Assembly (NCBI GenBank): GCA_964636325.1
Contig: CAZWRV010000030.1
Coordinates: forward strand, 62-64,061
Direction of reading: 5' to 3'
Length of the DNA stretch: 64,000 nt
Source of the DNA: an uncultured Victivallaceae bacterium
GTDB taxonomy: Bacteria > Verrucomicrobiota > Lentisphaeria > Victivallales > GWF2-50-93
This document shows positions 4,618 to 60,056 of this stretch, piece by piece. Within the stretch, counting starts at the first letter, position 1. Every line of letters starts with the position of its first letter. The notes under the pieces were generated by a model. That model was not told the DNA's origin. It saw only the letters and a program-made list of their open reading frames with translations, and ran no database searches. A program made the translations under genes and the position numbers.

Positions 4618-4772
4618 GTGGCTGTCATCTGCGGAAATCGCAGTTATTTCGATGAGAAACTCCACGGAGGGCGAAGCCGTGCTGAGCCGCGGTTGAGCTC
4701 GGCTCAACCCTCCGGAAGACGACAAAGCCGGCGACAAAACTAACGACAAAGATGTTCACGTTGCAGAGGAGC
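4618..4772 (+). repeat. R2 composite dispersed element, copy 2
   Basis: Module order: CTGCGGAAATCGCAG hairpin, GGAGGGCGAAGCCGTGCTGAGCCGC, GGTTGAGC-TCG-GCTCAACC hairpin, three 12-nt CGACAAAG-type units, then ATGTTCACGTTGCAGAGGAG. It ends 6 nt before the GH36-like gene ATG. Confidence 0.85.
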
Positions 4773-4777
4773 TTTGC

Positions 4778-7210
4778 ATGAAACTAGAATGTGACGGCAA
4801 GAGCGGCATCCGCGTATTGATACCCGGATGGACAGGCTTCCACCTGGAAGGCCTGCGCCCGGCGTTATGCGTCGACGGGAACAGGATTGCCTGCGATGAA
4901 AATGCGGAAGTCAAACGCCGTTCGGACAGATTCGCCGTCACATGGAAACTTGGCCCATGCAGTCTAGAGATGCGTGCGGAAGGCCAAGTCGGCGGCGGCA
5001 CGGTAGTCACTTCCACCCTTATGAACACCGGCGATAGCGAACTCCGCCTGGATGACGTAGCGTTATTGCAGGCTGACTGCTCGTTATCAAGGCCGACGTT
5101 TGGAACCGACCATTCCCGTGTCCGTATACTTGAGCAAGGCAACTACTGGGGGCGTGTTCGGCCGTTGACGCATTCCTCCGCGGTGACTAGCTCCCTCGAC
5201 GCCGCGGAACCGGGCGGAGCGCCGGCCCGGCAGGAGCGCGCCTCGGACCTTGTCTCCGTCGTGTATGACCAGGACAGCCGACAGGCTCTGCTTGTCGGAT
5301 TCCTGGCAAGCGAACGTTGGCTTGGCCGCATCCTGGCGAACACCGGCCTGGACGGCTCGGTTTCCACATGGCGCATCGGTTTCGACGCAGGAGAACTGCT
5401 TGTCGAACCGAATGAAAGGCTTGAACTGGAGCCCATAATTTTTCTGTCCGGATCGGATCCGTGGCGCCTGTTGATTCAATATGCCGAACAAGCGGCCTTG
5501 AGGCACAGGCCCTGCATGCCTGTAGGACAAGTGGTCTCATGGTGCAGCTGGTATCCATACCGCCTGGGAGTGACCGAGGAACGAATCCTGGCGGAAGCGC
5601 GGATCGCCGCCCGGCGGCTGAAACCCCTCGGGCTGAAAATAATCGAAGTGGATCTCGGATGGGAAGAGCGGAACCTGCCATGCTCGTTCACTGAAAACGA
5701 ACGTTTCCCACATGGTCTGAAATGGCTTTCCGAGCGGCTCCAGGAATTTGGTTTTGAACTGGGGGCATGGAAGGCACCCTACACGATTTCCGAGTTCGAC
5801 CCACTGGTGAAAGAGCATCCTGAATGGCTGGTTTCCGACGAGACGGGGAGCCCTCTGGCGTATTGGGAATGGTTCTGGAAGCCGCACGGAAAAGTTCATA
5901 TCCTGGATCTGACGCATCCGGGTGCCCTTCAATGGCTGCGGGAAAAAGTGCAGAGCCTGACCGACCGCGGCGTACGCTACTTGAAGTTCGACTTCATCGG
6001 CTGCGCGGCGGATGGAAAGGCCAAGCGACGGCACAATCCCCGCATCGTAATGGGGGCCGGCACTGAGGCGGCGCGCAAGGCTGCAAGCCTGATCCGGGAA
6101 GCGGCGCCGGAAGCGCTGATCCTCAATTGTGGCGGACCGGAAATGCCGGGCACGGGCCACTGGCCACTGCTTTACGCATGCAACGACACCGGGAACTCAG
6201 GTTTCATCGGCCATGGGACGCAGTCTCTCAATTATGAAGCCGTGGCCTGCCATCTCTTCAAGAACCGCCGCTGGGGGCTCATCCAGCCTTCCTGCCTAGT
6301 GGTCGGCCTTCCCGGAACTGTAGAAGATGCCCGGCTGAGGGCGACAATCGCATTCCTTGCCGGAGGGCAGATCGACATATCAGACACTCTGACCACGCTA
6401 CCGGAGGAGCGCTGGCAGATCCTGACCGCGACGCTGCCGCCCGCGCCCGCCAGCGCCAGGCCGGTAGACTTGTTTGAGCCACTGGCCATGGTCCACTTCG
6501 ACTACGAAGGCACATGCCGCGGACAGCAGGGGCAGGCCCAGATCTTGCGGGAGCATCCTCCGGCGTCGGTCTGGCATCTGCGCATCAACGCCGGATGGGA
6601 CGAATGGGATCTTGTCGGAATTTTCTGCTACAGCCCGGGCAGCTCTTCGCCAAAGCCGGAGATATGCCGCTACGTGATTCCTTTGACAAAGCTTGGAATC
6701 TCCGAAGCGCTGCCGCTTTGGGGCTACGAGTTCTGGTCAGGGCAATTCCTGGGAAATGTCCCCGGCAAGCGGCACAATGCCGACGCCTACGTCCATCCTG
6801 GAGACTATCAGGATCTGAAAGTCGGAGGCACATCTGGCATACTTGATGTGGCATTCTTCGGGCCCTGCGCCAAGCTTATCTGCCTGCGCCGTCCAAAACC
6901 CCATCCTTGGGTGCTGGGCACCTCCTTCCACCAGAGCTGCGGCCTGGAACTTGCAGATGTCGCATGGGATCCGGCGGCGCGGCGCCTAAGCGGCGAACTG
7001 CGGCGCCCCGAAGGCGAATCGGGAACGATAATTTTCTCTTCTGACGGCCATGTCCCATTAAGAGCCGAGGCGGACGGACGGGAGATACCAGTTCGGCCTG
7101 GCGCATCAGGCAGCTATGCCTTGGCGCTCATAGCCGCCCGCTCCCCGCTGGAGTGGGCGGTATTTTTCTCGGAAGACTTATTTGTTTCAAAGACAAAGGA
7201 GGAAATGTGA
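4778..7210 (+). CDS. Glycoside hydrolase, GH36/clan GH-D alpha-galactosidase-like
   Basis: 810-aa ORF. The TIM-barrel region WCSWYPY..IIEVDLGWE and RGVRYLKFDF resembles the K-x-D nucleophile block of melibiase-type enzymes. No signal peptide. GAGGAG Shine-Dalgarno 6 nt upstream. Confidence 0.7.
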   Translation: MKLECDGKSGIRVLIPGWTGFHLEGLRPALCVDGNRIACDENAEVKRRSDRFAVTWKLGPCSLEMRAEGQVGGGTVVTSTLMNTGDSELRLDDVALLQADCSLSRPTFGTDHSRVRILEQGNYWGRVRPLTHSSAVTSSLDAAEPGGAPARQERASDLVSVVYDQDSRQALLVGFLASERWLGRILANTGLDGSVSTWRIGFDAGELLVEPNERLELEPIIFLSGSDPWRLLIQYAEQAALRHRPCMPVGQVVSWCSWYPYRLGVTEERILAEARIAARRLKPLGLKIIEVDLGWEERNLPCSFTENERFPHGLKWLSERLQEFGFELGAWKAPYTISEFDPLVKEHPEWLVSDETGSPLAYWEWFWKPHGKVHILDLTHPGALQWLREKVQSLTDRGVRYLKFDFIGCAADGKAKRRHNPRIVMGAGTEAARKAASLIREAAPEALILNCGGPEMPGTGHWPLLYACNDTGNSGFIGHGTQSLNYEAVACHLFKNRRWGLIQPSCLVVGLPGTVEDARLRATIAFLAGGQIDISDTLTTLPEERWQILTATLPPAPASARPVDLFEPLAMVHFDYEGTCRGQQGQAQILREHPPASVWHLRINAGWDEWDLVGIFCYSPGSSSPKPEICRYVIPLTKLGISEALPLWGYEFWSGQFLGNVPGKRHNADAYVHPGDYQDLKVGGTSGILDVAFFGPCAKLICLRRPKPHPWVLGTSFHQSCGLELADVAWDPAARRLSGELRRPEGESGTIIFSSDGHVPLRAEADGREIPVRPGASGSYALALIAARSPLEWAVFFSEDLFVSKTKEEM

Positions 7211-7236
7211 AGATCATAGGCAGCTACAGGCGGAAA

Positions 7237-8415
7237 ATGTCATTGGTTATTCGTTCGGCCCTGTGTCTGATTGCAGCCCTGTCCGTCCATGCGCTGACGG
7301 CGACCGAAAATCAGAGGCTTGCCGAGGACGACTTCAGCTACAAGAGTTCGTTCGACGGGGCGGAACCGCTGTTCGTCCATGCCGTCTATCCGGCAGACGC
7401 CAAGGATCTGCCGCTGATGGTTGTCCAGCACGGCTACTGGGGCAAGCGGCAGGACGTGCTCTACAGCCAGAAGCGCATCGCCGAACGCGGATATTTCGCC
7501 ATAGCCCTCGATACGCGCGGCTGGGATAAGGCCGGAGGGAAGCACGACGACGGCGGCGTGGAGATCATGGATATCTACGACGGCATCCAGGAGGCGCTGA
7601 AAAAATTCAAAGGAAAGATCAACCCTTCACGAATCTCGATCGTAGGCTACTCCAACGGCGGGGCGAACGTGTTCTTCTCCACAGTGCGCATGCCTTTCAT
7701 GTTCCGGGCGTCCATGGCGTTCTTCGGAATCCCCGACTACGGGATGTGGTATGAGCTGCAGCAGGGATTCAGGGGCGAGATGAACAAGGCTATCGGCGGC
7801 GAACCTAAGGCCTTACCCGACAAATATCTCGCGCGCAACTCGGCGCTGGCCGTCAAAAACATCGGGCAGACGCGCTTCCATATCGTATATGACGAGGAGG
7901 AGAAGCTCTGCCCCATCCCTATGGACGACGCCTTCGTGGAGGCGGCAAAGAAGGCCGGCCTGAAAAACGTCTTCGTCCATGTGAGCAAGAAAACCGACAA
8001 GAACCGCTGGAACCACGGCTACAACACCAACGGGCATCTTTCCCCGGCCGAGGACATCTTCATGGACGACATCGAAAAATCCAATGCCGCGCCACAGACG
8101 ATGCCGCCGGAAGGCGAACTCGTGGTCCTAGGCTTCGTGGTCACCCCGAAATTCACATGCGTCCTGGGAAGCGGCGAAGACACGGTCGCGACCATAAAAT
8201 ATGCCTTCAGAGGGGAAGGGGCGGGGCTTGAATTCTCAACTCCAGTCACATCTGTCAAGGATGCCAAAGTCCGTCTAATCATCCCCGCCGACGCCTTCAT
8301 GGGCGGGGCAGTCGCCATTATAGACGGCAAGGAGGCCGCATCTTCCAAGGCCGGAGAAGACCTGGCCTTCGAAACGTCGGTCACGAAGAAAATCGAAATC
8401 AGGCCGATAAAATGA
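7237..8415 (+). CDS. Secreted alpha/beta hydrolase (S9 peptidase / esterase-like)
   Basis: Signal peptide MSLVIRSALCLIAALSVHA. Nucleophile elbow G-Y-S-N-G-G in RISIVGYSNGGANVFF. Start moved from 7153 to 7237 to avoid overlapping the upstream gene and to begin at the signal peptide. Confidence 0.7.
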   Translation: MSLVIRSALCLIAALSVHALTATENQRLAEDDFSYKSSFDGAEPLFVHAVYPADAKDLPLMVVQHGYWGKRQDVLYSQKRIAERGYFAIALDTRGWDKAGGKHDDGGVEIMDIYDGIQEALKKFKGKINPSRISIVGYSNGGANVFFSTVRMPFMFRASMAFFGIPDYGMWYELQQGFRGEMNKAIGGEPKALPDKYLARNSALAVKNIGQTRFHIVYDEEEKLCPIPMDDAFVEAAKKAGLKNVFVHVSKKTDKNRWNHGYNTNGHLSPAEDIFMDDIEKSNAAPQTMPPEGELVVLGFVVTPKFTCVLGSGEDTVATIKYAFRGEGAGLEFSTPVTSVKDAKVRLIIPADAFMGGAVAIIDGKEAASSKAGEDLAFETSVTKKIEIRPIK

Positions 8416-8542
8416 AAAGACTGACGTATTATAAAAAATGGCATTTTTTTTACATGAACTCTTGCATTATAGAACAAAGCCGATAAATTATACGCTCAAA
8501 ATTAACTGATGAGCAGTTAAAAAACAAAACAAAGGGGAAAAG

Positions 8543-8752
8543 ATGAAGAAGCTCATGCTCCTCACAGCCGTCGCCGTCGCCACCGCCTTCACAGCCGGTA
8601 TCTACGCCGCCGAGGAAAAGGCCGCCGCCAAGTGCGCATGCGGACAGGAATGCACATGCGAGAAGGAGTGCAAGTGCACAGACAAGGACAAGGAATGCAA
8701 GTGCGAGAAGTGCGCTGAGCTCAAGAAGAAGGCCGAGAAGAAGGCTGAATAA
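8543..8752 (+). CDS. Small secreted Cys-rich (CxC) metallothionein-like protein
   Basis: 69 aa with a Sec signal peptide (MKKLMLLTAVAVATAFTAGIYA|AEE). The mature 47 aa carry 9 Cys arranged as CAC, CTC, CKC, CKC and C within a Lys/Glu-rich frame. AAAGGGGAAAAG RBS upstream and a strong terminator directly downstream. Confidence 0.7.
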   Translation: MKKLMLLTAVAVATAFTAGIYAAEEKAAAKCACGQECTCEKECKCTDKDKECKCEKCAELKKKAEKKAE

Positions 8753-8777
8753 GAATCTTCCGATTATCGACATAAAA

Positions 8778-8812
8778 AGACGACGCCTGCACAAGGCGTC
8801 GTCTTTTTTTTT
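8778..8812 (+). terminator. Rho-independent terminator
   Basis: AGACGACGCC-TGCACAA-GGCGTCGTCT: a perfect 10-bp GC-rich stem followed by T8. Confidence 0.8.
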
Positions 8813-8877
8813 GATCGGCTGCTGATTCACCGCATAGCTTCCAGCGCCTTAATCCCTTATTAAGAACACATGGTGGG

Positions 8878-8948: not shown

Positions 8949-10394
8949 TTAGTTCTTCCAAAGGGCGTTGAGAGATTTTACAGTCTCCTCGACTAGGACG
9001 TCGCCGGCCTCATGGCCGACCTCGTTGCAGTAGACGCATGCGCTGTAGCCCTGGCCCTCTTCGGCCTCGTCCGTGGGGAGGTAGCATATGTAGTCGTATC
9101 CCGCGCAGAGCTGGACGGTGAACGTCTGGACCGCCGGGCTCCGCGCCTGGATCCTTATCCCGAATTCTGAAAAGCATTCGAACGTATTTGTGGCGAAGGC
9201 GACATCGCCCACTCTGACGACATGCAGCTCCATGGGATAGGCCGTGTTTTCCTTCTGCTTCTCATAGCGTTCCAGAACCCTTCTGCAGCGCACCATCCTG
9301 GAATGGAGGATGGACTCCGACTCAAGATAGCTTTCCGAAACCTTTTTCTTCTCCAGCTCGCGGAGCCCCTTCCTCACCATGTCATATTCCTGCCTGGTCA
9401 CCTTTCTCGCGGGCAGCCTGACGGTCCTGACCAGATGGCCGGTCTCGGCCGAGCTTCTCATATCCTTCATGGCCGGCGGCAGGGCGTCGGCGAAGGCCGC
9501 GCATATCCTGTTTGCGATTTCCTGCCGCGGAGAGAGGCCTTTCAGCTCGAGCATGCGCTTCTCGGCGTTCTTGTTGAAGATGAGGTGGGGCGAGAGATCC
9601 CCGGAAGGGGCGCACTGCGGCAGCAGGAAGAGCTTCTTCCCGTATTTATTCCTGAGGCTCTGCCGGACCTCATGCCAGAAGTCCGCGGACATTTCGTTCA
9701 AGCACTCTGCCTGCTGGGACGGGCACGCGATGTTTACGACGGCGCCGGTAAGCCGTTTCGCAGTGTCGAAGGTGAAGAGGAAATGGGCGCTGTGGTCCGC
9801 ATATCCTTCGATCCCCTTGAATTTCGGATCGTTGGTATTGCCGTACATCCTGGCGTTCCTGTGGATGCTCATGCCCGCATGGTCGAAGTGGCCGGGCCTT
9901 TTGCTCAGATCGTCGGAATACAGGGCCCTTCTGCTGTGGCATGTCACGGCGTAGCCCATGGCCCAGGCGACATGGCCGGGCCTGCGCCCCTTCCAGCTCT
10001 CGGCGGCGGCCTCGGCGACGCGATCCGAGAAGAATTCAGAATATTCGTCCGGAGTCATGACTCCGTCCGGGACGGGCGGATACCATCGTCCCATCATATC
10101 CGGGGCGTCATGGGTATGCGTTGCGCTCAGGATCAGCCTGTCCGCCGGGAAATCTTCCGCGAGCTTCGCAAGCTTCCGCCTCACAAGCTCAAGGACATGA
10201 AGCGGGACATAGCAGGTGTCGCACGAAACCCAGATGAACGATCCGCCGTCCTTCCCCGAAGAGACCGCGAGCGCGGTGACAGTGAGCGGATCGTTCACCT
10301 TCGACGTTATCCGAGAGTGGAACTGCCCGAACAAGTTGACCGTTCTCCCTGGCGTCACATCCCGCGACGCCCAGCCGATTAGAATCTTTTCCAT
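8949..10394 (-). CDS. Hypothetical hydrolase, neutral/alkaline ceramidase N-terminal-domain-like
   Basis: 481 aa. The N-terminus ILIGWASRDVTPG...DPLTVTALAV...SATHTHDAPD follows the pattern I recall for ceramidase-like N-terminal domains (G.A..DITP ... ATHTHSGP). The family call is from memory only. Confidence 0.5.
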   Translation of the reverse strand: MEKILIGWASRDVTPGRTVNLFGQFHSRITSKVNDPLTVTALAVSSGKDGGSFIWVSCDTCYVPLHVLELVRRKLAKLAEDFPADRLILSATHTHDAPDMMGRWYPPVPDGVMTPDEYSEFFSDRVAEAAAESWKGRRPGHVAWAMGYAVTCHSRRALYSDDLSKRPGHFDHAGMSIHRNARMYGNTNDPKFKGIEGYADHSAHFLFTFDTAKRLTGAVVNIACPSQQAECLNEMSADFWHEVRQSLRNKYGKKLFLLPQCAPSGDLSPHLIFNKNAEKRMLELKGLSPRQEIANRICAAFADALPPAMKDMRSSAETGHLVRTVRLPARKVTRQEYDMVRKGLRELEKKKVSESYLESESILHSRMVRCRRVLERYEKQKENTAYPMELHVVRVGDVAFATNTFECFSEFGIRIQARSPAVQTFTVQLCAGYDYICYLPTDEAEEGQGYSACVYCNEVGHEAGDVLVEETVKSLNALWKN

Positions 10395-13092: not shown

Positions 13093-13139
13093 AAAATTCA
13101 GAATACCGAAACCCGAAAGAATGATAAATTCCAAAATCC

Positions 13140-13172
13140 GGACGTCAAAAAGTTTTGTCCCTTTTTATTTTT
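13140..13172 (+). terminator. Weak intrinsic terminator candidate after argG
   Basis: GGAC...GTCC short stem followed by CTTTTTATTTTT. The surrounding spacer is AT-rich. Confidence 0.3.
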
Positions 13173-13232
13173 GATGTTTTGAAATTGTTTCGAAATTCGT
13201 AATTCGGATTTCGAATTTACCCGAGGATATAT

Positions 13233-14597
13233 ATGCAGCCCGTCAAAGTTCTTCTCTCCGACAAGGAGATTCCGCGCAGGTGGTACAACATCCAGGCCGA
13301 TCTTCCGAATCCGCTCCATCCGCCGCTGAACCCCGTGACCGGCAGGCCAGTCGGCCCGGATGATCTGGCGCCTGTCTTTCCGATGAACCTGATCGAGCAG
13401 GAGGTGAGCACGGAGCGCTGGATCGACATTCCGGAGCCGGTGCTTGGGAAATACGCACTCTACCGCCCTTCGCCGCTCTACCGGGCCGTGAACTTCGAGA
13501 AGGCGCTGGGAACTCCGGCGAAGATCTACTTCAAGAACGAGGGTGTCTCCCCGGCGGGCAGCCACAAGCCGAACTCCGCGCTGCCGCAGGCATACTACAA
13601 CAAGGTGTTTGGCATAAAGAGGCTGACGACCGAGACTGGCGCAGGACAGTGGGGCAGCGCGCTGAGCCTTGCATGCTGCCTCTTCGGCCTGAAGCTCAAG
13701 GTCTACATGGTTCGCATCAGCTTCGAGCACAAGCCCTTCCGAAAGCACATGATGAACATATGGGGCGCCGAGTGCGTGCCCAGCCCCAGCCGCGACACGG
13801 AGGCCGGACGGAAAGTCCTGGCCGAGATGCCTGACACCCCCGGCAGCCTCGGGATCGCCATAAGCGAGGCCGTAGAGGACGCCGTCACCTCCAAGGACAC
13901 GAAATACTCCCTCGGCAGCGTGCTCAACTTCGTCTGCCTGCACCAGACTGTCATCGGCCTCGAGGCGCAGAAGCAGATGAAGAAGATCGGCGAATACCCC
14001 GACACGGTGATCGGCTGCGTCGGAGGCGGCTCCAACTTCGCCGGGATATCCTTCCCGTTCGTCCAGGACAAGATAAACGGGAAGAAGGTCGCGGTGATCG
14101 GCGCCGAGCCGACCGCGTGCCCGACCATGACCAAGGGGCCCTTCATATACGACTACGGGGACAACTCGAAGATGACCCCGCTGCTGGCCATGCATTCGCT
14201 CGGGCACAACTTCATACCCGCGCCGCTGCACGCCGGCGGGCTCCGCTACCACGGAGTCGCGCCGCTCGTGAGCAGGCTCCTCGTGGACGGCCTGATCGAG
14301 GCGCGCTCCTACAACCAGCTCGAATGCTACAAGTATGCGTTGCTCTGGGCCAGGACCGAGGCGTTCATTCCCGCTCCGGAGGCCTCGCACGCCATCGCCG
14401 CAGTCGCGGCCGAGGCGCTGAAGGCGAAGGAGGAGGGCAAGGAAAAGACGATACTCTTCTGCTGGTCGGGCCACGGGCTCCTGGATCTTACCGGCTACGA
14501 GGCTTATATGGCCGGGAAGCTGACCGACTACGAGCTGCCGGACGAGGAGATCGCCAAGACCATCGCACGCCTGTCCTCCCATCCCAGGCCGGAATGA
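13233..14597 (+). CDS. trpB: TrpB-like PLP-dependent enzyme (tryptophan synthase beta chain, TrpB2 type)
   Basis: N-terminus [23 protein letters not shown].., GSHKPNSAL (PLP lysine region) and GGGSNFAGI are characteristic of the long TrpB2 subfamily. The 559-aa antisense ORF is a GC shadow. Confidence 0.9.
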
Positions 14598-47132: not shown

Positions 47133-48044
47133 TCACACTATCCTCGTCCATTTCGGACGAATCTCGCCGAGGAAATTCATAAGCCTTAACCCGTTTGCGT
47201 TCAGCCACTTGCGATGTTCACGGCATTCCGGGACAAGATCCGCCACCTGCTTCCAGAACTCGGAGCCGTGATCGGCCCTTCGGAGATGGGAGAGCTCGTG
47301 CGCCACCACATATTCGCATACCTTCTCCGGCGCCATCACAAGCCTCCAGTTGAGGCTTATCCTGCGGTTCCGCTTCGAGCAGGTCCCCCAGCTAGTGCGA
47401 AGATCCTTCAGCCAGAGCGAGACGCTTCCGCCTGGCGCGGCCGGCTCAAGGCGCAACCATATCTGCCTGATCAGTTCAGCGCTCCGCCTGAAATACCATG
47501 ATGCCAGCATGGAGGCCATAAGGCGTTCCTGCTCCCGGGCGTCAAGACGATCCAGGCCGGACTTGAAGATCGCTATCCGTCCACCGTCTGCCGCCACGGA
47601 ATGCGAAAAGCCGGTCCCCTTCTCCAGGCGGAGCTCCACCATCTCCCCGCGGAATGGGACCATTACCGTCCCTCCTGCGAGAATCGGCGAAAGGCTGATG
47701 CGGCTCCCTCGGTATTCGGCGAGCTTCCTTCGTATCCAGGCGCCGTGGCGCTCAAGGAAGCGGGCCACCTCGCCTTCGCCGCAGCCGCAGGGAACTCTTA
47801 CGCTTACGCCGCCCGCTCCCACTGAGAGCGAAAGCCTTCTGAACCTTGTGTCCCGTAGGTATGAAATTTCGCAGTTGTCGATGTGAAATGTCTCCTGAAA
47901 CTCACATATCTCTGTCGGTATCTTTGTCGCGAACTTTCTCGTCTTCCGGAGGGTTGAGCCAAGCGCCGCGCCGTAGTCCGACGAAGACGGGAGTAAAATG
48001 ATTTCATGGCGGGCTTGCTGAGGCCGCCATGAAATCATCCTCAA
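47133..48044 (-). CDS. YgjP/DUF45-like M48-type zinc metallopeptidase (start uncertain)
   Basis: HELSHL (HExxH) and WGTCS motifs. The family core begins near [21 protein letters not shown]. The N-terminal roughly 45 codons (TTG start) are a translation of an R2 repeat copy. Confidence 0.7.
47891..47972 (-). repeat. R2 composite dispersed element, copy 4 (degenerate, inside the ygjP-like ORF 5' end)
   Basis: In element orientation: GGCGCGGCGCTTGGCTCAACCCTCCGGAAGACGAGAAAGTTCGCGACAAAGATACCGACAGAGATATGTGAGTTTCAGGAGA. The left arm of the GGTTGAGC hairpin is lost. Confidence 0.7.
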
Positions 48045-49519
48045 TATCCGTCGAGGAACTTCCTGCGCTCTGGATGCCGCAGCTTCTCGAGCGCCCGGTT
48101 CTCGATCTGGCGCACCCGCTCCTTGGATATCTTGAAGTGCGCGCCCAGCTCCTCGAGCGTGCGCTCCTTCTCCCCGAGCAGCCCGAAGCGCATCATGAGC
48201 ACCTGCTGCTCCCTCTCGGAAAGAGTGTCCAGCGCCAGGCGGACCTTCTCCTTGAGGAAGTCGTACGACACCTTCTGCGCGGGATCAAGGCTGTCGGAGT
48301 CGGCGATCAGATCCTCTATCGAAGCGTCCTCGCCCTCCTTGACGGTTGACTGCAGCGAAATCGTCTGCTGCGCCATCTTCTTCAAGGCCCTGATGCGCTC
48401 CTTCGGCATATCGAGGAGGGCGGCCAGCTCCTCCGGCTCCGGCTCCCTGCCGTGCTCCTGCAGGAAGCGCTGCTCCATCTGGAACATCCTGCTTATGGTC
48501 GAAATCATGTGGACCGGCAGGCGTATCACGCGCGACTGGTCTGCTATCGCCCTTGAAATCGCCTGCTTTATCCACCAGGTCGCGTAAGTGCTGAACTTGT
48601 GGCCCAGCCTGTAGTCGAACTTCTCCACGGCCTTCATGAGGCCGATGTTCCCCTCCTGTATGAGATCGTTGAAGTGAAGCCCCTTGCCCTTGTATTTTCT
48701 AGCGACGCTGACCACCAGGCGGAGGTTACCCTCGAGCATCCTCTTCCGCGCCGCGAACGCCTCGTCCCTCAGGCTGCCGATCCTCGACATCTCGGCCTTG
48801 AAAAGTTCCATGCCCATCAGAACCTTGTCCTCCACGGCGCGCGCCTCCACCAGGGGCGCGCCTCCTGCGGGCCGCGGCTCTTGAGCGGCGGAGAAGCGCT
48901 TGAGGTATTCAGAAGCAACCTCGTACCATTCGTCCACATATTCCGCCTGCATCCTGTACCTTCCAAGGACGCAGGCAAGCCTGTCCCTCAGCTTCTGCGC
49001 GGGCGCATCGGGGCCGCGGTAGGCCTTGGCGAGCGCCGCATGGCATGCCAGTATCTCCTTGTTCCAGCCTGCAAGCTTCGGGAGCAGCGACTCGGGGCAG
49101 CGGATTGCGTCGGAATCCGCATGGAGCTGGAAATGTTCAGCAAGATTCTCGGCGTTGCAGTCAGCTATTATCCTCGAGTGCTCAAGCGCCACGAACCCGA
49201 ACCGGTAGACCGCGGCGCGTATCTTCTCGAAGGAGTCGAAGTATCTCTTCGAAAGCGACTGCTCCTCCTCGAACGTCAAAAGGGGATTCTGCCCCATCTG
49301 CTTGAGATAGATGTCGAGGACCTCGGCCTCCCCAAGCCCTGCCGGACCGGAATCAATCTCCGGGAGGGTTCCCGTCCCGTCCATGTCGAACATGGAGCTG
49401 ACCACGTCCCCGCCGTCCGGATCCGCGGAGGATGCCGCATCCACGGCACCGCCGGAATTCCTTTTCTTCCTAGCGTTCAAAAGAAACCTCGACAATTCGC
49501 GCCTAAAGTTCCGCATCAA
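48041..49519 (-). CDS. rpoD: RNA polymerase primary sigma factor (sigma-70)
   Basis: Region 1.2, 2.x ([29 protein letters not shown]), 3 and 4.2 ([24 protein letters not shown]) are all present. Confidence 0.95.
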
Positions 49520-59400: not shown

Positions 59401-60056
59401 AGGCTTCGGCCATCCAGTGAATCAATGTTCATGCGCTTGAGCTCCACAGCCATTTCGAGCTGCCATGCATCCTCCGTAACATGACATTTGAGCGGTCCTC
59501 CCATCGACCAAAGCGTTTCCGATCCGGGCGTGCCGTTGAAAAACCACATGTCTGTCACAGCGCCCTTGGGATTGGCCATGATCTTATAAAAACCCTTCCC
59601 CTCGAACATTGCATCCTTACGTTCGTTAGTCAGTATCTGCACCTCGACGTGATCCTCGAAAAGCAAAGCTTCACTCTCGTTTTCCTTCACACGTGCCTTG
59701 GGATACGTCCCCTTGGGGTTTGGAGAATGCATCGCCAGATAAAGATATTTGCTGTCGTAGCCGATATACCAGATAACCTGCTGGACTTCCGCAACCATCG
59801 AGAAGGGGCCTACGCCGCCGGTCGACGCAAGGCCGGTGATAGCCGCCGCCCCCCGCCATTCCTCCTGTCCGATCACTCCGTCTATATTCGGCGGCACCTT
59901 CATCTTCGGCGCCAGCAACACGGGATACTCGAATTTTCCGGATTCATCCTCTTCCGCCCAAGCAACTCCCCCCAGGATAATCGCTCCTAAGGCGCAGGTC
60001 ACTATTGGAGTCCAGAAGGCGCATGATGCATCCTTATGCCATCCAAATCTTCTCAT
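56487..60056 (-). CDS. Giant secreted CBM9-like + glycoside-hydrolase-like (DUF4091/GH123-like) protein
   Basis: 1189 aa with a signal peptide and AAGGGGG RBS. N-terminal PNIDGVIGQEEWRGAA...YLYLAMHSPNP...EDHVEVQIL (CBM9/DOMON-like). The C-terminal region is paralogous to 50165-54361. Confidence 0.6.
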   Translation of the reverse strand: MRRFGWHKDASCAFWTPIVTCALGAIILGGVAWAEEDESGKFEYPVLLAPKMKVPPNIDGVIGQEEWRGAAAITGLASTGGVGPFSMVAEVQQVIWYIGYDSKYLYLAMHSPNPKGTYPKARVKENESEALLFEDHVEVQILTNERKDAMFEGKGFYKIMANPKGAVTDMWFFNGTPGSETLWSMGGPLKCHVTEDAWQLEMAVELKRMNIDSLDGRSLVMQLVRADESGGFYFAGLVPGCWTEWKRFARVDFAPDAPVFRYTKTGEVMDGMLDTMISVAGGSKPAEAFIEVSVENAEGKNIFRENRTLKLNPGESAEAHFKKTGIPITQITQKDSKRNWMEIKALSGNTVLYHNRQPFVALNGSYRTEYLVKWLAGRPQSGAWESHLAYLPYSGKAEAGVDLDFFGVPAEIQAAASFKVAIRPVNGWFRSTLAFGAAPIRDRTGSLLLDVPSLDDGDYEAVFQLLDSEGGRIAEQTSKFERRHYPFEHNTLGINEEVIPPFSPIAVKDRRLSVWGRSYLVGKGGLLDGISARMPTGQRGLEAGLLASPMRLLLKTDNKMVAAADAEVKFPCVAAHAVEIAGSQKLGDIRADISGTLEYDGWYGVKLTLTPEKHLVVESLDLLLELADIPADTLYIQRNGDSWAGNRFGAIPSSPGLFFESTELAAYCDRGKDWLSFVPVSYVGSGDRGLWFFAWSDAGWELRAEQPMMCLERLENGQVRMTVRLLAGPVTVDKPRNLRFAFQAAPMKPNNPRYRTLVQEGGIAHATPGYRTYGDSVDGYALHDERDFTALRRHLLYGTKYPEITAGNMNIFHERFRNANRIVLYGSTFMGGVGAPEHKTFGGEWLGRSDWKPRPDPSYANQLNDGGTIKWTSEEQLTPWWYNWTASYNDFFIWYHKPLMEKCGINGTWWDNASIGTIREYNPETGHMELSFNLWQRRQLLKRLNHLGWELMRPPFWTSNMHCSDMSFNQMAWQIENLWFSSNADYTSFDVWSLDQYRALTRTKTTMLVPKPSYGGFFRSWEKHPDPSRGLKIGRSLAAIQLLHDIVPIVDYTNINSFLYPLRRRLDALVDLPDCIRCLFTGYWNSTAFITPPDADIKVSFYSNTATLSTAVIFGNISRKDLSLEGTVLDVNKIISGHPLPDAPRKIKRIYDLETERDVAVAAQDGKWRINQVLVVPWHEYVVLAIEAE

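Follow-up and report, generated by a model that had tools for sequence, protein, structure and literature searches.

A probable small orphan gene for a predicted Sec-exported, C-x-C-rich, metallothionein-like peptide in an uncultured Victivallaceae bacterium

Bacterial thiolate-cluster proteins such as SmtA/BmtA, MymT, and Csp3 are cytosolic. Outside the cytoplasm, the accepted view is that bacteria handle metals with Met, His, and carboxylate ligands, on the ground that thiols are oxidised in the periplasm; Met, His, and Trp ligands survive in an oxidising periplasm, and engineers obtained periplasmic metal capture by fusing animal metallothioneins (MTs) to export signals. We investigated a small open reading frame (ORF) at 8543..8752 on the plus strand of a 64,000-nucleotide stretch of DNA (hereafter the window; contig CAZWRV010000030.1 of GenBank assembly GCA_964636325.1) from an uncultured Victivallaceae bacterium. 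Its 69-amino-acid (aa) product has a predicted Sec signal peptide and a mature part with nine Cys. The ORF is very probably a real translated gene; more tentatively, we propose that its product is exported by Sec to the periplasm of an anaerobic host and binds metal there in a thiolate cluster.

In a review of copper homeostasis, bacterial MTs are grouped among the cytosolic Cu-binding proteins (PMC7558416), and the described exported bacterial Cys-based copper store is Csp1, a type of four-helix bundle exported by the twin-arginine translocation (Tat) pathway (PMC7558416). We found no native periplasmic, secreted, or exported bacterial MT in the full-text literature, the coverage of which excludes subscription journals. 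An earlier reading of the window made from the letters alone (the sequence-only reading) had called an exported version unusual. This is true of the literature but not of sequence space, where metagenomes hold further C-x-C-G peptides with signal peptides.

The gene, its signals, and its product

Codon usage in 28 long window ORFs served to train a codon table. The sense frame of the small ORF (69 codons) had a log-likelihood of +43 bits, compared with 23 +/- 15 bits for true coding windows of the same length and -34 +/- 30 bits for non-coding frames; this score is matched by only 0.6% of non-coding frames and lies at the 90th percentile of coding windows. The genome-preferred codons dominate (Lys AAG, 15 of 15; Cys TGC, 9 of 9; Ala GCC, 11 of 14), and the GC content at third codon positions is 0.81. 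The ORF also stands out in overall GC content (58%) from the spacer upstream of it (8416..8542, plus strand; 29%) and from the stretch between it and the downstream hairpin (38%). It has the highest Cys density among the ORF segments of all six window frames, and none of 100 Markov-simulated 64-kb sequences contained an ORF with four C-x-C pairs in a span of 30 aa. Given its own composition, the clustering of Cys into C-x-C pairs has p of about 0.01-0.02, and p is about 0.01 for four such pairs in the absence of CC. Rfam hits in the region were all sub-threshold and confined to the terminator hairpin, so that no RNA family explains it.

The training set included a 494-aa antisense ORF (13098-14582, minus strand) opposite a gene for a pyridoxal phosphate (PLP)-dependent, TrpB-like protein (13233-14597, plus strand). 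This antisense ORF is very probably a shadow ORF of the kind typical of GC-rich genomes, and its inclusion makes the coding test slightly conservative. A 126-aa antisense ORF (8450..8830, minus strand) overlaps the entire small gene, and we rejected it as a true gene: it scores only +6.6 bits over 126 codons, crosses the terminator, is a Leu/Phe-rich mirror of Lys/Glu codons, and is missing from the protein collection searched below. A shadow ORF of this kind could displace a true small gene in automatic annotation.

The ATG start is preceded at a distance of 5 nt by a GGGG-type ribosome-binding site (8531..8538, plus strand), AAAGGGGA (AAAGGGGAAAAG), and a near-identical motif, AAAGGGGGAAAC, lies 5' of a minus-strand gene whose start is at 60056. 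A promoter may lie in the AT-rich spacer; alternatively, transcription of the esterase gene at 7237..8415 may run on into the ORF, no terminator having been found between the esterase stop and the ORF. Downstream is an intrinsic terminator (8774..8812, both strands), a hairpin of 15 pairs (8774-8808; -24 kcal/mol) with a T run to 8812. Flanked by A5 and, on the opposite side, by T9, it is usable in both directions and so can also end the convergent gene at 8949..10394 (minus strand). The sequence-only reading had described a 69-aa ORF with a ribosome-binding site and a strong terminator, and both the translation and the strength of the hairpin bear this out.

The precursor consists of a predicted signal peptide, MKKLMLLTAVAVATAFTAGIYA (8543..8608, plus strand), followed by a predicted mature part, AEEKAAAKCACGQECTCEKECKCTDKDKECKCEKCAELKKKAEKKAE (8609..8749, plus strand). 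The signal part has the n-region MKK, a 15-residue uncharged h-region, LMLLTAVAVATAFTA, and then G-I-Y-A followed by A, with cleavage by signal peptidase I (SPase I) predicted heuristically after Ala22. It thus shows the charged n-region, the uncharged h-region of 10-16 residues, and the small residues at -3/-1 expected of Sec/SPase I precursors. Of the 1001 ATG-started window ORFs with 40 aa or more, 7 passed our heuristic (basic n-region, uncharged hydrophobic run of at least 12 residues, small residues at -3/-1), this ORF among them, and at least some of the other six encode genuine exported proteins. The Sec-type signal claimed by the sequence-only reading is thus borne out in its signature, with neither a twin-arginine motif nor a lipobox, while cleavage after IYA, like export itself, is a prediction. 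Three other types of precursor were considered and rejected: a lipoprotein cut by signal peptidase II (no lipobox, the first Cys being residue 31 of the precursor, 9 residues past the predicted cleavage), a Tat substrate (no twin-arginine motif), and a prepilin (no defining motifs).

The predicted mature peptide has 47 residues, a mass of 5.2 kDa, a pI of 7.7, and a net charge of about +1. Its composition includes 13 Lys, 12 Glu/Asp, 9 Cys, 8 Ala, and one each of Gly, Gln, and Leu, with no aromatic residue and no His. The nine Cys form four C-x-C pairs (mature positions 9/11, 15/17, 21/23, and 30/32) plus the single C35, exactly as first noticed; they make up 19% of the mature residues (9/47) and 33% of the core (9/27). 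The core, CACGQECTCEKECKCTDKDKECKCEKC (8633..8713, plus strand), has the spacing CxC-x3-CxC-x3-CxC-x6-CxC-x2-C, with Lys adjoining Cys, no CC, and one C-x-x-C. An 18-bp tandem repeat (8633..8672, plus strand; 2.2 copies, 82% matches) encodes the hexapeptide module CxCxxE, which suggests that the Cys domain grew by duplication. The AlphaFold model, built from the single sequence, was uninformative (mean predicted local distance difference test score of 62, one short C-terminal helix only), and Foldseek returned no structural neighbour of it in the PDB.

Comparison with known metal-binding proteins

Kagi and co-workers are said to have defined MTs operationally by a mass below 10 kDa, high Cys content, C-x-C and C-x-x-C motifs, few aromatics or His, and metal-thiolate clusters. 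The predicted mature peptide agrees with this definition in mass and Cys content (5.2 kDa; 19% overall, 33% in the core) and in motifs (four C-x-C, one C-x-x-C, no aromatics, no His). The proposal of a metallothionein-like peptide thus stands for size, Cys content, and motifs, but not for family, homologues, or metal context, since no MT family match, no homologue, and no metal-related neighbour was found. By its sequence the peptide appears metallothionein-like in form and is probably exported, but it does not belong to any MT family.

The only PDB sequence match was the beta domain of human MT-2 (2mhu), and it was not significant (E = 9, 10 bits); the alignment matched eight of the nine Cys with one 4-residue gap. 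When the non-Cys residues were permuted with Cys positions and composition fixed, the score against this domain lay 3 standard deviations above the shuffles (p = 0.004, about 0.03 after correction for eight tests), driven by the strings C-T-C, C-K-C, and K-E-C-K-C. The vertebrate MT-1/MT-2 beta domain (PF00131) shares with the peptide these strings, nine Cys in about 30 residues arranged as four C-x-C pairs and then x2-C, Lys beside Cys, and the lack of both aromatics and His. It differs in spacing (x5/x3/x2, versus x3/x3/x6 in the peptide), and the peptide, unlike vertebrate MT, is bacterial, comes with a predicted cleavable Sec signal and with helical tails rich in Lys and Glu, lacks an alpha domain, and has no Pfam hit. 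We read the resemblance as probable convergence on the same chemistry rather than common ancestry. The MT-2 beta domain binds an M(II)3Cys9 cluster or up to six Cu(I).

The N-domain of plant type 1 MT (PF01439) has the same CxC-x3-CxC-x3-CxC spacing and the same Gly after the first pair. Plant proteins, however, are cytosolic; they also comprise another Cys domain and a long linker free of Cys, and their second pair is followed by Gly, that of the peptide by Glu. The similarity beyond the scaffold was not significant (p = 0.18), although a profile that included the window peptide retrieved a plant metallothionein-like protein (P0057).

Among bacterial proteins, SmtA/BmtA (PF02069) and mycobacterial MymT are likewise small and Cys-rich (PMC7558416), but they are cytosolic, lack a signal peptide, and gave no sequence match to the window peptide. 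Moreover, the Zn4 cluster of SmtA/BmtA, set in a fold resembling a zinc finger, has His as well as Cys ligands, whereas the peptide has no His. The sequence-only reading had taken the SmtA/BmtA type to be unrelated in pattern, and the lack of a profile match, together with the lack of His and the presence of a signal peptide, agrees with this. Copper storage proteins of the Csp1 type are Cys-rich with an export signal (PMC7558416), but differ in being exported pre-folded by Tat, in their size (about 120 aa) and tetrameric state, and in having Cys that line the helices; the window peptide begins with MKK without RR, has 47 residues after predicted cleavage and no hydrophobic core, and its C-x-C pairs face all directions on a helical wheel. 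Like the peptide, CusF, PcoE/SilE, and PtrA are small proteins with a Sec signal, and they handle Cu or Ag in the periplasm (PMC7558416 and general knowledge); unlike it, they bind through Met, His, or Trp, and none is Cys-rich. We also rejected a precursor of a Cys-rich ribosomally synthesised and post-translationally modified peptide (SCIFF, ranthipeptides): the N-terminus is a hydrophobic signal, and no radical-SAM or other maturase gene is adjacent.

Pfam and NCBIfam searches with the precursor, the mature peptide, and the core returned nothing relevant. A word-indexed search of 5.8 billion proteins gave three candidates, without a score. The exact 47-mer DNA was absent from metagenome contigs, and tblastn found no match in plasmids and phages, where the low-complexity filter probably masks the query. 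The precursor, a version with an alternative start, and three antisense variants had no exact copy in a collection of 15 billion proteins. We read the ORF as a real, lineage-restricted gene of a Victivallales (Lentisphaerota) bacterium.

Exported C-x-C-G peptides in metagenomes and viruses

Scans of viral contigs with plain DNA patterns of six or eight Cys were dominated by hexanucleotide and (TGC)n microsatellites, and the scans were hardened with 'not-T' codon constraints and a hydrophobic-run constraint. The hardened scans found other small signal-peptide proteins with CxC-G-x-x-CxC-x3-CxC in viral contigs and metagenomes, and a profile search seeded with ten pattern-derived sequences found more. 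These exported C-x-C-G peptides include P0053, P0054, P0048, P0052, L089/P0049, L350/P0056, and L328. None of the scanned peptides matched a curated family. The matches of the profile search had no precomputed Pfam domain, except the plant MT P0057, and were named in their sources as 'hypothetical protein' at most. The pattern did not demand Gly after the first C-x-C, yet every one of the ten aligned sequences has it, the window peptide included. Unlike the window peptide, most of the others are rich in Pro, Gly, and Asp and end in His.

Closest to the window peptide are P0053 (L402:115-456) and P0054 (L403:818-1084), multi-module proteins of 88-113 aa rich in Lys, Asp, Glu, and Gly and unnamed in their sources. 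They contain repeated G-K-E-C-K-C-G-A-E-C-K-C-D-S-K-D-G-C-K-C modules and a His-rich end, GHGGHKG. Their Cys domain starts with AAADCPCGPECKC, that of the window peptide with AAAKCACGQECTC, and they share AAA[K/D]CxCGxECxC, K-E-C-K-C modules, and a Lys/Asp/Glu-rich make-up. The neighbours of P0053 in L402 are a response regulator and Mrp/Nuo-type antiporter subunits.

A second type forms a module that is apparently undescribed so far. In high-GC metagenome contigs, an exported CPCGxxCPCGxxCPC peptide, often ending in His, is immediately followed by a gene for an extracytoplasmic function (ECF) sigma factor (Sigma70_r2). The loci are L389:2006-3219 and L350:222-1018 on the minus strand, and L355:190-886, L404:1168-2395, L405:2606-3840, and L406:2647-3797 on the plus strand. 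The CPCG peptides have 39-47 aa (L389, MKKWFAVAALLALPSIALASDCPCGEGCPCGAGCPCQHG; P0048; P0052), and the ECF sigma factor gene is always next to them; the peptide of L350, an acidic protein of 83 aa with nine C-x-C pairs, has the same arrangement. Where the contig reaches far enough (L389, L404-L406), there is a third gene of about 155-186 aa without a Pfam hit, which may encode an anti-sigma factor. Two module loci adjoin a Planctomycete cytochrome C (PSCyt1) protein, so some of them come from the Planctomycetes-Verrucomicrobia-Chlamydiae (PVC) group. The window gene lies outside this module, there being no ECF sigma factor in the window.

Among the analogues, only L328 (L328:201-1289, plus strand), an exported C-x-C-rich protein of 110 aa (MKKKFSMAIIIFFIAVFNFSGNAFA followed by ECRCVFECACGVECRCDDGCACKNECEC...), has an explicit metal context: directly 3' of its gene lies one for a secreted protein of 226 aa that carries a heavy-metal-associated (HMA) domain. 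Taken together, these loci make exported C-x-C peptides a recurrent feature of bacteria, at least one of them tied to metal biology by a neighbouring gene.

The scans also returned other Cys-rich proteins. A large family of bacterial proteins of 48-67 aa without a signal peptide is common in metagenomes (MNATQQxPCNCTTCPGTGCTCGCQQAAA..CACGPQCxCGAQCQCG..; L309, L317, L321, L329, L333-L335, L337, L340, L341, L345, L351, L358, L373, L386, L388, L390, L391, and L401). They match no Pfam or NCBIfam model and, judged by their sequences, look like an uncurated cytosolic family of metallothionein type. Tiny C-x-C proteins are encoded at viral (IMG/VR) loci L018:2333-2452 (minus strand), L049, L115, L259:6670-6822 (plus strand), L268, L276, L304, and L089:8244-8429 (plus strand). 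They include a 28-aa type, MPKCECGPDCNCGDNCECKDCDCKKEEK, with a match to Pfam Metallothio below threshold (E = 0.0056), a 43-aa lipoprotein type, MKYLIIAILGATLVGC...CPCDKVCACKGECICDK, and a 52-aa type with a signal peptide (L089/P0049). An exported JGI protein of 124 aa, P0062, has two copies of Y-x-C-x-C-G-x-x-C-x-C-x-T-x-S-x-x-P-G-x-C-x-C-G-K and no Pfam domain on record.

Possible functions and significance

We tentatively propose the following mechanism, the likeliest of the readings considered. The 69-aa precursor would be threaded unfolded through SecYEG and cut by signal peptidase I after Ala22, which would release into the periplasm a 47-residue peptide without a hydrophobic core that folds only around metal. 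The nine thiolates would wrap an M(II)3Cys9 or Cu(I)4-6 cluster, as in the animal MT beta domain, with Lys beside Cys offsetting the cluster charge and two Lys/Glu-rich helical tails (a helix is predicted at the C-terminus) keeping the peptide soluble. In a strict anaerobe, the periplasm need not oxidise thiols; Victivallales are anaerobic, which makes reduced periplasmic thiols plausible. The peptide would then be a periplasmic buffer, sink, or donor of soft metals such as Cu(I), Zn(II), and Cd(II). Metal binding and stoichiometry are both predicted from the sequence.

Several features of the sequence argue for a metal-thiolate cluster. With an odd number of Cys, full intramolecular pairing is impossible, and this, together with four tandem C-x-C pairs, argues against a fixed disulfide fold. 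The absence of aromatics and His, the single Leu, and the match to the MT-2 beta domain likewise point to metal-thiolate rather than disulfide chemistry. The analogues are consistent with metal binding, in that exported C-x-C-G-x-x-C-x-C peptides exist and one of them lies beside a secreted HMA-domain protein.

The genomic context says nothing of function. The ORF is flanked by the gene of a Peptidase_S9-family esterase (7237..8415) and that of a protein without a Pfam hit. The window is core chromosome: Pfam domains were found in 25 of the 29 long ORFs scanned and none in the other four, and the domains include those of chorismate synthase, argininosuccinate synthase, a PLP-dependent enzyme, an AIRS/FGAR-amidotransferase protein, a pterin-binding enzyme, deoxyxylulose phosphate (DXP) reductoisomerase, an ACCA carboxyltransferase, DNA gyrase subunit A, a four-region sigma-70 factor, many glycoside hydrolases, and a prepilin-type protein. 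No ECF sigma factor or peptide maturase is among the 29 long ORFs of the 64 kb, and no anti-sigma, transporter, or immunity gene was found in the window. The sole sigma factor of the window is of the primary four-region RpoD type (48044..49516) and lies 40 kb away; the sole radical-SAM gene lies 22 kb away and, by its domains (UPF0004 and Radical_SAM), is read as probably encoding a MiaB-type methylthiotransferase. The neighbouring genes assign the window to Victivallales (Lentisphaerota, PVC group). The nearest relative of the esterase is 58% identical, so that there is no close genome for comparison, and the best genomic relatives of the 481-aa neighbour, in an uncultured Victivallis sp. and a Victivallales metagenome-assembled genome, have about 60% identity. 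A Logan contig (L004; SRR12969846, 3884 bp) corresponds to about 4700-8581 of the window and encodes an identical esterase protein in a second public sample; it ends 166 bp past the esterase stop, about 39 bp into the small ORF, and so gives no independent view of the ORF.

A number of results weigh against the proposed gene and function. No promoter was found near the ORF by a sigma-70 consensus scan, and the terminator could belong simply to the neighbouring genes. The proteins of both neighbours, from the same 64,251-bp contig, are present in the collection of 15 billion proteins while the product of the small ORF is absent, which indicates that annotators did not call the small ORF. The MT profiles (PF00131, PF01439, PF02068, PF02069, and others) matched neither the precursor nor the mature peptide nor the core, even at E <= 10. 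An exhaustive phmmer search of 1.84 billion cluster representatives gave no hit at E <= 0.001, and this null is not mere insensitivity, since in a power test gapless Cys-keeping relatives with 60% of the other residues replaced would still reach E < 1e-7 in a database of that size; relatives with linker indels, or unannotated ones, could escape the search. A genome-collection scan guided by synteny through the 481-aa neighbour led to three Victivallales loci, none of which has a syntenic copy (a Cys-rich Lys/Glu ORF). The sequence-only reading had set conservation in relatives as a test beforehand, and the result went against it, with no homologue detected at the level examined. No metal transporter, metal sensor, or Dsb/thioredoxin-type gene is among the 29 long ORFs of the window; with no metal or redox genes nearby, the context is uninformative on function. 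A reduced thiol state in the periplasm of this host is an assumption.

The analogues call for similar caution. The search by C-x-C spacing suggested in the sequence-only reading did find other exported C-x-C-G peptides, but their similarity to the window peptide beyond the scaffold was marginal, with p of only about 0.05 for P0053/P0054 beyond scaffold and composition. Homology with P0053/P0054 or L089 was rejected (p only about 0.05-0.16, in pattern-ascertained sequences); the analogues were fished by the Cys pattern itself, and their homology is therefore not proven. Since the whole case consists of sequence features of a single orphan gene, we put the claim forward as a hypothesis.

Other functions were considered for an exported product. 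One, to which we give a low probability, is a thiol-rich redox or scavenger peptide, acting in the periplasm as a thiol buffer, sacrificial or recyclable, that takes up oxidants, electrophiles, or polysulfide. Disulfides within C-x-C are strained and redox-active, and the pairs of the peptide would form such easily reduced disulfides. All evidence for the gene and its export applies here equally, as does the lack of metal context in the window; against it, there is no partner reductase or thioredoxin-fold gene nearby, the MT-domain-like pattern and the juxtaposition of Lys and Cys suit metal clusters better, and a 47-aa stoichiometric scavenger would be an expensive design.

We consider it just as improbable that the product is a disulfide-linked exported peptide acting as a signal, an antimicrobial, a structural element, or the ligand of an envelope sensor, a reading that takes in the disulfide-knotted option of the sequence-only reading. 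The peptide is small, predicted to be secreted, and Cys-rich, and the fact that CPCG peptide genes always stand just 5' of an ECF sigma factor gene suggests that this type may serve in sensing. The odd Cys count and four C-x-C pairs, which are poor disulfide partners, speak against it, as do the net charge of about +1 and the absence of any hydrophobic or amphipathic face, traits not expected of an antimicrobial peptide, and the lack of the sigma, anti-sigma, transporter, immunity, and adjacent maturase genes mentioned above.

A third possibility, again of low probability, is a young orphan that arose de novo or through a recently expanded repeat and is expressed and exported without a selected function, or with one unrelated to Cys. 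The lack of any homologue or of a syntenic copy at related loci, the internal 18-bp tandem duplication, and the low-complexity Lys/Glu/Ala/Cys sequence would fit such an origin, but the optimised codons and well-formed signal peptide are unexpected for an unselected newcomer, and the Cys pattern is non-random.

Least likely of all is an ORF arisen by chance between two convergent genes, in their long 3' region, with a hairpin that serves those two genes alone: the product missing from a collection that holds both neighbours, the lack of a consensus promoter and of conservation, and the bidirectional terminator fit this, but several independent signals would need to coincide, among them the codon score, a signal-like N-terminus present in <1% of window ORFs, a ribosome-binding site at the correct distance, a GC island in an AT-rich spacer, and a Cys pattern not seen in the simulations, whereas the longer antisense ORF at the same place scores poorly.

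If the peptide is indeed a metal-binding export, what would be new is metallothionein-type chemistry behind a Sec signal, MT chemistry itself being known. It is doubtful, though conceivable, that this is the first natural Sec-exported MT, an anaerobiosis-enabled periplasmic metal buffer of a PVC-group bacterium and one of a wider, so far unrecognised class of exported C-x-C-G peptides. Several of these peptides look unrelated, and some are locked to ECF sigma operons and point to metal or redox sensing at the envelope; this side result, the ECF-linked CPCG type, may be a more testable lead than the window gene. Were the proposal true, the members of the class wired to ECF sigma factors or HMA proteins would imply thiolate-based metal handling or sensing outside the bacterial cytoplasm as well, and the window peptide would offer a minimal natural scaffold of 47 residues for periplasmic metal capture. 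Anaerobes could then run MT chemistry in the periplasm, with a peptide exported by Sec and folded by metal.

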